Shown in pieces: positions 10,072 through 11,496 of a stretch of 64,000 nt of DNA. Both the position numbers and the translations under genes were made by a program. The stretch lies in assembly GCF_013122565.1 (NCBI RefSeq), contig NZ_CP053258.1; one strand, written 5' to 3'. Under the pieces are notes generated by a model. That model was not told the DNA's origin and did not search any database. It saw only the letters and a list, made by a program, of their open reading frames with translations. Origin of the DNA: Escherichia coli (GTDB taxonomy: Bacteria > Pseudomonadota > Gammaproteobacteria > Enterobacterales > Enterobacteriaceae). Positions within the stretch are counted from its first letter, which is position 1. The number at the start of each line of letters is the position of its first letter.

Positions 10072-10095
10072 CGAATTACCATTCAGGGAGGAATA

Positions 10096-10695
10096 ATGGC
10101 TGACTATTTTGAAATACGTGCTGATTACAATCAGCACACCATCACGGTTTATCAGGCTTACAATGATGCAATCGCCGACGTCGCCGTACGTGGCGGGCGA
10201 TTTGGCAGCCCTTTTTCATTCAACCGCATGACCTGGATTAAACCCTCTTTTATGTGGATGATGGAGCGTAGCAACTGGGGACTGAAAAAAGATCAACAAC
10301 GCATTCTCGCAATCCGAATCAAACGCACCTTCTTTGATACATTGCTGGAACAAGCGGTGCTAACCACACCGGAAGCCCATGTCTATCCACATGCAGGAGT
10401 TTGGGAAACGTTATTTGCGCAAGCAAATGTGTATGTTCAGTGGGACCCAGAACGCAGCATAAATGGCAAAAAACTGGAGCACCGATCATTACAGCTTGGT
10501 ATTTCTCGTAACTTGATCAGTCAATTTAACGAAGACGCGATTGTTGCCATTGATGATCTGACGCCGTTGGTGCGAAAGTGTCATAACCTTTTGATAAACG
10601 GTAAAACAACACAGGCGAAATCCTTCCTGCCGCCAGAAAAAATTTATCCTGTTAGTGCAGCTGCGAGAAAGGCTTTGGGAATGAAAAATTCCTGA
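10096..10695 (+). CDS. Hypothetical protein (199 aa), not in the K-12 apaH-folA interval
   Basis: ATG preceded by a strong AGGGAGG Shine-Dalgarno; uninterrupted ORF; visibly lower GC than flanking core genes (by eye). Confidence 0.7.
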   Translation: MADYFEIRADYNQHTITVYQAYNDAIADVAVRGGRFGSPFSFNRMTWIKPSFMWMMERSNWGLKKDQQRILAIRIKRTFFDTLLEQAVLTTPEAHVYPHAGVWETLFAQANVYVQWDPERSINGKKLEHRSLQLGISRNLISQFNEDAIVAIDDLTPLVRKCHNLLINGKTTQAKSFLPPEKIYPVSAAARKALGMKNS

Positions 10696-10730
10696 GACAA
10701 ATACGCGCCTATTTAGCGGAAAATATCTAA

Positions 10731-11198
10731 GTGCGAGAAATCAACAGCGGGCTTAATACCAGAGAAATTATTCTGGCAATGATTGACGAAGCAGATGAAC
10801 CCCCATTTGCTGAGCAGCGGACCTGGCATCGCAGGCGAATCGCTTTTTTATGTGAATGCATCAGCGTTGCAGTCGACTACGGCTTCTTCTGTTCTGTCTC
10901 TCAGCAGTCAATAATGAACATAACCAGGATGGCTGACGATGTATGGATAACAGAAAGTAAAACGACCCAACTCATTGATATCTGGCAACAACTTAAGCTG
11001 CTTTATCCGCCAGAAACTATTCCCTACGCCCAGAAGTTACCCACTAAGGAATTGCTTGAACTGCTACTTTCTAGTCCTGATGATCTTCGAATAATTGAAA
11101 TTCCTGACATTATCGGTGATGTTTTTGATGACCAAACCTGGATTCGGTTATTCAAAAAACACTTTGCTGATGTTATTCAACTACGAAGTGATGTGTAA
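10731..11198 (+). CDS. Hypothetical acidic protein (155 aa from GTG, or 139 aa from the ATG at 10779)
   Basis: ORF 35 nt downstream of the preceding gene on the same strand; net acidic composition; start codon uncertain, no clear Shine-Dalgarno. Confidence 0.5.
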   Translation: MREINSGLNTREIILAMIDEADEPPFAEQRTWHRRRIAFLCECISVAVDYGFFCSVSQQSIMNITRMADDVWITESKTTQLIDIWQQLKLLYPPETIPYAQKLPTKELLELLLSSPDDLRIIEIPDIIGDVFDDQTWIRLFKKHFADVIQLRSDV

Positions 11199-11496
11199 CA
11201 ATCCAAAATACATCGCCAGACGATAGACCAAAAAGTAAGTATTTAGCAGATACTCAACATTCTGACCTCTCTACAGAAATAGCAGAGTTTAAAAACTTAA
11301 AACTTCCGGTACTCATCAGAGAAACATCCTGTTTCTTCTGCAAGTTCATTTAATGCCAGGATGGCATCCTCGTTTATTTCAGTCCACTGTAGAGTGGCTT
11401 GATGGTTTAGACCTACGCAATGAGCGCGACTCACAAAATCGCGCTCACTGGTAAAATCAGACGTCTTATCGTTCAATTTGTAGTCATAGCAAAAAT

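Follow-up and report, generated by a model that had tools for sequence, protein, structure and literature searches.

Gene content and boundaries of the apaH–folA interval

The window analysed here is a 64,000-nt stretch of the Escherichia coli contig NZ_CP053258.1 (assembly GCF_013122565.1), and the element in question is an accessory islet located between apaH and folA. These two genes are convergent and are separated by 1,425 bp in the window, compared with 77 bp in E. coli K-12, which confirms the widening to approximately 1.4 kb noticed in an earlier reading of the DNA letters alone (hereafter, the sequence-only reading). That reading described two same-strand open reading frames (ORFs) followed by approximately 300 bp of non-coding DNA. 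Both ORFs were recovered as described: ORF1 encodes 199 amino acids and has an AGGGAGG motif a few bases before its ATG start codon, and ORF2 follows after a gap of 35 nt and encodes an acidic protein of 139–155 amino acids. The DNA after ORF2 is not non-coding, however, and holds a 59-codon ORF of the CcdA type on the opposite strand. The interval holds three genes, not two (Table 1). The locus and its genes are already annotated. The gene kefC lies beyond folA, also on the minus strand.

Table 1. Features of the apaH–folA interval and its neighbouring genes, with positions in the window (pI, isoelectric point).
Feature	Position	Strand	Remarks
rsmA	8015–8836	+	
apaG	8839–9216	+	
apaH	9223–10071	+	282 aa; left boundary gene; matches the O157 allele through its TAA stop codon
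Left junction and apaH–ORF1 spacer	10072–10095	+	24 nt; Shine-Dalgarno AGGGAGG at 10085–10091
ORF1	10096–10695	+	DUF4291 protein; 199 aa; pI 9.46
ORF2	10731–11198	+	155 aa from GTG; pI 4.65; helical C-terminal domain of a rare family
AT-rich spacer	11199–11296		98 bp; G+C content 0.36; between convergent ORF2 and ccdA remnant
ccdA remnant	11297–11476	−	Decayed orphan antitoxin remnant; 59 codons; TTG start
Imperfect hairpin	11418–11450		Arms 11418–11429 and 11439–11450; 12 nt, 92% complementary; 9-nt loop
Right junction	11477–11496		20 nt from the ccdA remnant to the folA stop codon
folA	11497–11976	−	159 aa; right boundary gene

The match to O157 ends at the apaH stop codon (position 10071), divergence starts at position 10072, and homology to O157 and K-12 returns at position 11493, four bases past the folA stop codon. 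Within the interval the G+C content is 0.36–0.46, compared with 0.53–0.56 in apaH and folA, in agreement with the AT-rich composition seen earlier. K-12 contains no sequence homologous to the insert, and no direct or inverted repeats hinting at a transposon or att site were found flanking it. A 34-nt direct repeat with 74% identity is shared by the coding sequences of ORF1 (10240–10273) and ORF2 (10838–10871) and is probably a chance match. The hairpin that the sequence-only reading placed around 11418–11445 was also recovered, but it lies inside the ccdA remnant rather than in non-coding DNA, and no separate function is indicated for it.

ApaH has 282 amino acids in the window and 280 in K-12, in agreement with the sequence-only reading. 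The proposal that the two extra codons mark the insertion junction is ruled out by the ApaH tail ...GEGEAVAS, which is common to O157, Superficieibacter and another enterobacterium; given this shared tail, the 280-aa ApaH of K-12 is read as the derived form. The folA–apaH interval has been described as a plastic hot spot, with the ccdO157 toxin-antitoxin system in O157:H7 and repetitive extragenic palindromic (REP) sequences elsewhere (PMC7167474, PMC3184786, PMC7232551). As far as these papers recount it, ccdO157 at this site was described by Mine et al. (2009). The insert in the window is a real accessory insert at this known E. coli hot spot.

ORF1 starts 24 nt past the apaH stop codon with a strong Shine-Dalgarno sequence. 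Because no terminator-like site was found in the spacer between apaH and ORF1, ORF1 is probably co-transcribed with the apaH operon by read-through. A promoter scan gave nothing above chance, and no credible promoter of ORF1's own was found. The only plus-strand promoter match near ORF1 was dismissed since it overlaps the ORF1 start codon.

ORF1 encodes a DUF4291 protein with an ADP-ribosyltransferase fold

ORF1 belongs to the Pfam family DUF4291 (PF14124; E = 4.5e-68; score 229 bits, with a gathering cut-off of 27), with the match covering profile positions 1–180 of 180. The tentative suggestion of the sequence-only reading that ORF1 resembles a domain of unknown function is thus borne out. 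DUF4291 has 7,793 matches at E ≤ 1e-10, and ORF1 shares 50–58% amino acid identity with members in Bacteroidota, Planctomycetota, Myxococcota and Actinomycetota. Structure comparison assigns ORF1 to the ADP-ribosyltransferase (ART) fold, with the toxin domain of RhsP2 as the closest match and with Arr and mono-ARTs also among the matches. The ART-like fold of DUF4291 has already been published, together with the motifs QAY and WIK and with an NAD+ docking result (PMC12522546). Both motifs are present in ORF1 (Q20-A21-Y22 and W47-I48-K49). The conserved motifs of ORF1 are Y19-Q20-x-Y22, W47-x-K49, Q115-W116-D117-P118 and Q133.

Two DUF4291 paralog classes occur within single arrays of Bacteroidota (L027, L042 and L047). 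One class resembles ORF1 in length (197–199 aa) and shares 50–58% identity with it, and the second class has 211–213 aa with an N-terminal extension and shares 35–38% identity with ORF1. Residues invariant in both classes are Y19, Q20, Y22, R44, W47, K49, R58, K64, Q67, W103, Q115-W116-D117-P118, K126, R130 and Q133, and position 119 is E or D in all members. No canonical catalytic triad (H-Y-E, R-S-E or R-Y-E) is evident in the DUF4291 alignment, and a conserved Glu at the start of the ORF1 strand 126–136, looked for as the residue of strand beta-5, is not present in this alignment. The published assignment puts the invariant Q133 at the position of the catalytic Glu (PMC12522546).

ORF1 has a ratio of nonsynonymous to synonymous substitution rates (dN/dS) of 0.10–0.28 within Escherichia, and none of the five Escherichia alleles compared carries a disrupting change. 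Judging from their homologs and from dN/dS values of 0.10–0.38, ORF1 and ORF2 are both real genes. PADLOC-DB contains no match for ORF1, ORF2, the 218-aa ORF2 homolog of Superficieibacter or the PRiA4_ORF3 protein encoded at the same site in that genus. Searches of NCBIfam, PADLOC and PHROGs were uninformative for both ORFs, and a sequence-level relative in PDB was found for neither ORF1 nor the ORF2 family.

ORF2 encodes a truncated member of a rare, probably immunity-type family

ORF2 can start at a GTG at position 10731 (155 aa) or at an ATG at position 10779 (139 aa), ends at position 11198, and has a pI of 4.6–4.7. An in-frame TAA at 10728–10730 lies just before the GTG, and ORF2 therefore has no possible upstream extension. 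The GTG start is favoured because the alignment with relatives already starts at residue 7, upstream of the ATG.

ORF2 has no family match in Pfam or NCBIfam. Its family is rare, with 20 representatives in 1.84 billion proteins and 22 clusters in 5.8 billion. Among full-length relatives, a 189-aa protein (56% identity) and the 218-aa Superficieibacter protein (48% identity) are closest, and both have an N-terminal CxxC-x11-CxxC segment missing from E. coli ORF2. In the structure model of the family (predicted local distance difference test score, pLDDT, 90.9), a zinc-ribbon-like knuckle is followed by a helical bundle. E. coli ORF2 starts at approximately residue 42 of this model and misses the zinc-ribbon-like segment and the first two helices; by this comparison it is N-terminally truncated. 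The dN/dS of ORF2 is 0.20–0.38. In the Escherichia albertii locus L021, ORF2 carries a +1 frameshift with a stop at codon 28, next to an intact 199-aa ORF1, and 94-aa forms of ORF2 recur in three clusters.

The neighbours of ORF2 relatives include genes of recognised immunity families. A distant relative adjoins a gene that Pfam names Immunity protein TriTu, and another lies amid DUF2262, DUF4261, DUF1963 and ankyrin genes. A further relative (P0155) resides in a cassette array (L105, positions 4350–11499) with Imm43 and DUF2262 and with a tyrosine recombinase at its 5′ head. This array has a G+C content of 0.33 and at least 12 co-directional genes separated by regular spacers of 55–126 nt, which carry imperfect hairpin-like repeats. 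Its 5′ recombinase, gene number and G+C content are those of a rAID-1 orphan-immunity array (preprint 10.1101/471110). The cassette content of the array, Imm43 included, varies between samples. The spacer repeats resemble integron attC sites. Residence in such arrays holds for the ORF2 relatives and not for the copy in the window. Comparison of ORF2 with immunity protein structures gave no significant match (Foldseek E about 1, template modelling score, TM, 0.35–0.42).

A decayed ccdA gene lies next to folA

The minus-strand ORF, labelled as a CcdA-family antitoxin in RefSeq, matches Pfam CcdA over positions 36–71 of 71 (E = 7.7e-8), and thus retains the CcdB-binding C-terminal half. It shares 50% amino acid identity with residues 13–77 of CcdA_O157, with a 14-residue in-frame gap. 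Its N-terminal 23 residues lie outside the Pfam match, and the N-terminus is degenerate. The remnant lies 20 nt from folA, compared with 85 nt in O157, and the ccd promoter region is therefore missing. Neither an intact N-terminal DNA-binding domain nor a promoter/operator of its own is present. No ccdB gene or remnant was found when positions 10001–11600 were searched by tblastn with CcdB_O157 and with F-plasmid CcdB; the best E value was 0.66. The dN/dS of the remnant is approximately 0.65–3.5, based on few substitutions. On the evidence of the half-match to CcdA, the deletion, the lack of ccdB, the short gap to folA and the dN/dS, this ORF is a decayed orphan antitoxin gene.

Genomic context of DUF4291 genes

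A total of 100,044 species-representative genomes were scanned for DUF4291, and 80 loci were examined. Neighbours were counted at the 62 loci in which the DUF4291 gene was recovered by gene call, giving 116 immediate neighbours. These include Macro (6), NADAR (4), microbial PARG (2), ADP-ribosylglycohydrolase (2), Tpt1/KptA (2), SIR2 (2) and a second DUF4291 (2). Many DUF4291 loci have no obvious partner gene.

In Bacteroidota, DUF4291 genes are found within tightly packed same-strand arrays of 10–14 genes. Three of these arrays were annotated gene by gene and contain, in varying combinations, phosphoribosyl pyrophosphate (PRPP)-synthetase-like, NAMPT-like, Tpt1/KptA, 2-oxoglutarate (2OG)-Fe(II) oxygenase, ApaH-type calcineurin-like phosphoesterase, nucleoside deoxyribosyltransferase-like, SLOG, NADAR, PARG, Macro, SIR2 and SUKH/SMI1_KNR4 genes, with at most two DUF4291 paralogs. 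Two or three different ADP-ribose-removing enzymes are encoded in every one of these arrays. Such erasers, together with the PRPP-synthetase-like and NAMPT-like enzymes of some arrays, exceed the needs of a single ADP-ribose-adding enzyme, and a protective or repair role of DUF4291 is therefore favoured. The strong conservation of the family, its many solo loci and its low dN/dS also fit a non-toxic enzyme and favour such a role. Stand-alone PARGs are reported to protect cells from RhsP2 (PMC11833690).

PRPP-synthetase-like enzymes are encoded in two of the three arrays, and NAMPT-like enzymes in one of those two. In L047, a PRPP-synthetase-like gene (624–1466) and a NAMPT-family gene (7468–8919) both lie in the DUF4291 array, and in L040 only the PRPP-synthetase-like gene (2230–3102) is present, with no NAMPT-family gene. 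The pair in L047 may resemble NARP1 (Adps and Namat), a pathway by which phages reconstitute NAD+. Phosphoesterases with an ApaH-type core lie near or adjoin DUF4291 in the Flavobacteriia arrays (L047 5604–6371, L052 5608–6366 and L040 7823–8557) and share 28–36% identity with the ApaH of the window (E = 1e-8 to 1e-12). The presence of ApaH-type proteins near DUF4291 in both Flavobacteriia and Enterobacteriaceae may be a coincidence or a functional link. ApaH is an RNA decapping enzyme.

These contexts also bear on the idea that ORF1 is a regulated endogenous or small-molecule ART, either an Arr-like modifier of xenobiotics or antibiotics or a signalling "writer", with ORF2 and the ccdA remnant as unrelated passengers. 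The Arr and mono-ART matches of the fold are consistent with this idea, and so are the solo occurrence, good conservation and apparently non-toxic nature of the protein. TetR_N regulators, which are present in 28% of DUF4291 neighbourhoods (PMC12522546) and among the immediate neighbours in 2 of 116 cases here, would suit a regulated enzyme. However, erasers of nucleic-acid ADP-ribosylation and RNA-repair enzymes dominate among the enriched neighbours, a polyanionic substrate is suggested by six invariant basic residues (R44, K49, R58, K64, K126 and R130), and no TetR gene is present at the E. coli locus. We regard this idea as distinctly improbable.

Distribution and movement of the islet

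Among 5,426 complete E. coli genomes, 536 (approximately 10%) carry the whole insert at 95–98% identity, and 2,022 (37%) carry ccdAB. The best match of the window insert in these genomes reaches 97.6%, while apaH reaches 99.3%. The sequence-only reading had considered the insert an accessory one of uncharacterised function, missing from K-12; this agrees with its presence in one tenth of the genomes, and no housekeeping role is assigned to its genes.

ORF1 and ORF2 stand side by side in Escherichia (E. coli, E. albertii and Escherichia sp. 93.0816) and in Superficieibacter. At the same site in Superficieibacter electus (L008/L009/L023, 5001–7178), a DUF4291 gene encoding a protein 81% identical to ORF1 is followed, after a gap of 200 nt, by the gene for the full-length 218-aa ORF2 homolog, and a minus-strand gene with a PRiA4_ORF3 domain occupies the place of the Escherichia ccdA remnant. 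The apaH–ORF1 spacer can be aligned to the apaH–DUF4291 spacer of Superficieibacter. In a metagenomic enterobacterial contig (L004, 5001–5570), the gene for the 189-aa full-length ORF2 homolog is the sole gene between apaH and folA, without DUF4291 and without ccdA. Since the PRiA4_ORF3 gene and the ccdA remnant occupy one site in the two genera, the apaH–folA site exchanges cargo, comprising ccdAB, DUF4291, immunity-type genes and PRiA4_ORF3, across enterobacterial genera.

Between E. coli and E. albertii (window compared with L021 and L020/L022), the synonymous divergence of the insert is approximately 0.07–0.10, and that of the flanking apaH, folA and rsmA is 0.27–0.41. This lower divergence suggests that the islet was passed between Escherichia species after their split and has spread recently. 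A plasmid- or phage-borne module was considered and rejected: ORF1 has no phage matches, and the plasmid matches are megabase-scale chromosomal segments or folA fragments captured by insertion sequences (IS).

The selection and divergence data can be set against the view that the insert is functionless, decaying DNA that hitch-hikes and is kept only because it is linked to essential neighbours. Neutral evolution of the ccdA remnant, the truncation of ORF2 with its frameshift and premature-stop alleles, and the lack of the insert in approximately 90% of E. coli genomes would all be expected of such DNA. This view is nevertheless highly improbable, considering the dN/dS of ORF1 and ORF2, the undisrupted state of ORF1 in five of five Escherichia alleles, and the recent spread implied by an insert less diverged between species than its flanks.

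Fragments of the locus were also seen elsewhere. The IncY plasmid pPK5074-69kb (NZ_CP072804.1; L104, 2248–5363) carries chromosomal folA with the ccdA remnant and 420 nt from the 3′ end of ORF2 in a segment that is bounded by IS1 and IS26 and adjoins blaTEM-1. This segment resembles mobilised chromosomal folA, whose gene dosage might alter trimethoprim susceptibility. The 82-kb plasmid NZ_MG252036.1 also has the ccdA-remnant end of the insert. In the chromosome of E. coli EF7-18-58 (L103, 1759–3233), IS1 lies against the ccdA remnant, with yiaW and aldB beyond it. This arrangement was rejected as an ancestral state, as it reflects an IS1-mediated rearrangement that took ORF1 and ORF2 away from their position next to folA.

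Independent genes or a toxin-antidote pair

Our preferred reading, to which we assign a probability of approximately one half, is that the islet is a composite of three conflict-related genes that act independently at the folA–apaH hot spot. ORF1 would encode an ART-fold enzyme belonging to the NAD/ADP-ribose network, and its transcription would probably depend on read-through from apaH. We infer that the enzyme would bind NAD+ or an ADP-ribose derivative, that its substrate would be phosphorylated or a nucleic acid, with RNA the most likely, and that the direction of its chemistry would make its role protective or repair-like, as for Tpt1/KptA, rather than that of a self-poisoning toxin. ORF2 would be a truncated orphan immunity-type protein whose action would consist in binding an incoming toxin, and the third gene, the ccdA remnant, would be the decaying leftover of a ccd toxin-antitoxin system once present at the site.

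The sequence-only reading had instead seen the layout typical of toxin/immunity, toxin/antitoxin or small defence modules. As a rival explanation, ORF1 and ORF2 would be a true toxin-immunity or toxin-antitoxin pair, possibly serving abortive-infection defence, in which an RhsP2-like ART would ADP-ribosylate RNA and ORF2 would bind and block it. Several points weigh against three independent genes, and some of them would suit a pair. ORF1 and ORF2 lie next to each other in both Escherichia and Superficieibacter; ORF1 is basic (pI 9.46) and ORF2 is acidic (pI 4.65); and both are under purifying selection. The solved structure closest to ORF1 is that of a genuine toxin, RhsP2, and ORF2 is weakly linked in structure to immunity proteins. 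Systems of the DarT–DarG type join an ART toxin to an eraser, and the presence of erasers beside DUF4291 might by analogy identify it as a "writer" rather than a protective enzyme. In E. albertii, the frameshift falls within a homopolymer tract, where an assembly error is conceivable, yet 94-aa forms occur in three clusters.

A conserved co-occurrence of the two genes was not observed, however. An ORF2-type gene is found within 5 kb in only 1 of the 80 DUF4291 loci, that locus being the same apaH–folA site, and many loci are partnerless. Apart from the Escherichia/Superficieibacter configuration, the ORF2 family was seen in six contexts, and DUF4291 is nearby in none of them; in one, the ORF2 homolog stands alone at the apaH–folA site of another enterobacterium. 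An intact ORF1 is kept beside a frameshifted ORF2 in E. albertii, which is not expected of a toxin and its antidote, and ORF2 is truncated in E. coli. In addition, the conservation of DUF4291 across phyla is far above that of typical toxins, the published assignment places Gln at the position of the catalytic Glu (PMC12522546), and PADLOC matches neither gene. A true pair is therefore unlikely in our view. The sequence-only reading was right in tracing the genes to the world of toxins and immunity proteins, given the RhsP2-like fold of ORF1 and the orphan-immunity arrays of ORF2 relatives, and probably wrong on the architecture.

A bolder version of the preferred reading can be offered tentatively. 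DUF4291 might represent a new ART-fold activity, conserved from bacteria to fungi, whose Gln-containing site would serve to repair, reverse or pre-empt RNA ADP-ribosylation or phosphate lesions. The islet might then be a miniature stack of orphan anti-toxin genes, namely DUF4291, a member of a new zinc-ribbon/helical immunity family and the ccdA remnant, expressed by apaH read-through. We hold this version to be possible rather than probable.

This accessory islet is already annotated and its site is known, and it does not represent a new type of system. The locus and genes are annotated, the hot spot has been published, and so has the ART-like fold of DUF4291. What appear to be new are the closeness of ORF1 to RhsP2, the DUF4291 operons with multiple erasers, and ORF2 as a member of a rare immunity-type family, which would be a new and rare type of orphan immunity protein. 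Among uncharacterised ART-fold families, DUF4291 is one of the largest, comprising thousands of proteins from bacteria and hundreds from fungi, and the islet provides a representative in the easily manipulated E. coli. A gap in the rapidly developing field of nucleic-acid ADP-ribosylation would be closed by learning whether DUF4291 acts as a writer, an eraser or a repair enzyme of ADP-ribose or phosphate marks on RNA. The locus also shows a hot spot swapping conflict-related cargo across enterobacterial genera.

Comparison with known systems

The islet occupies the same integration site as ccdO157; in both, the 282-aa form of apaH ends at the junction, and folA is directly followed, on its own strand, by a gene of the CcdA family. 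In contrast to ccdO157, the islet lacks ccdB and has two unrelated opposite-strand genes at the ccdB position. Its ccdA is a 59-codon remnant with 50% protein identity, an internal deletion and no promoter region, and with approximately 80% DNA identity over 70 nt.

RhsP2 ADP-ribosylates the 2′-OH of structured RNA by means of an R-Y-E triad and a basic surface (PMC12340436). The C-terminal toxin domain of RhsP2, solved with RhsI2 (PDB 7RT7), is an ART delivered through type VI secretion (T6SS), and ORF1 is only 10% identical to it. Unlike RhsP2, ORF1 has no evident equivalent of the R-Y-E triad and no Rhs or delivery domain. No similarity of ORF2 to RhsI2 was detected, and DUF4291 is mostly solo and strongly conserved, in contrast to the RhsP2/RhsI2 pair.

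Tpt1/KptA is an ART-fold enzyme that repairs RNA and does not poison cells (PMC9503650). This RNA 2′-phosphotransferase shares the ART fold with DUF4291 and may resemble it in its non-canonical active site and stand-alone, non-toxic nature, and the two are encoded in the same NAD/ADP-ribose operons of Bacteroidota. DarT–DarG and ART–NADAR toxin-antitoxin pairs, each made up of an ART "writer" and an eraser antitoxin, are also similar in that, in some genomes, DUF4291 forms an ART-fold gene beside Macro or NADAR.

SsdAI (PDB 7JTU chain B), which confers immunity to the T6SS deaminase SsdA, and DUF416 proteins (PDB 3F7C) are non-significant matches of ORF2, with 7–16% identity, and the ORF2 family differs from both in an extra N-terminal zinc-ribbon-like segment. 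We know of no cognate toxin for this family. Its full-length relatives are cassettes in orphan-immunity arrays (polyimmunity loci and the Bacteroidales AID and rAID-1 clusters; Ross et al., preprint 10.1101/471110). The array of the ORF2 relative is like rAID-1 in its 5′ tyrosine recombinase, co-directional low-G+C genes and repeat-bearing spacers, and ORF2 relatives have Imm43 and TriTu neighbours. The E. coli locus differs from such arrays in that it has no recombinase or cassette repeats and carries a single truncated immunity-type gene.

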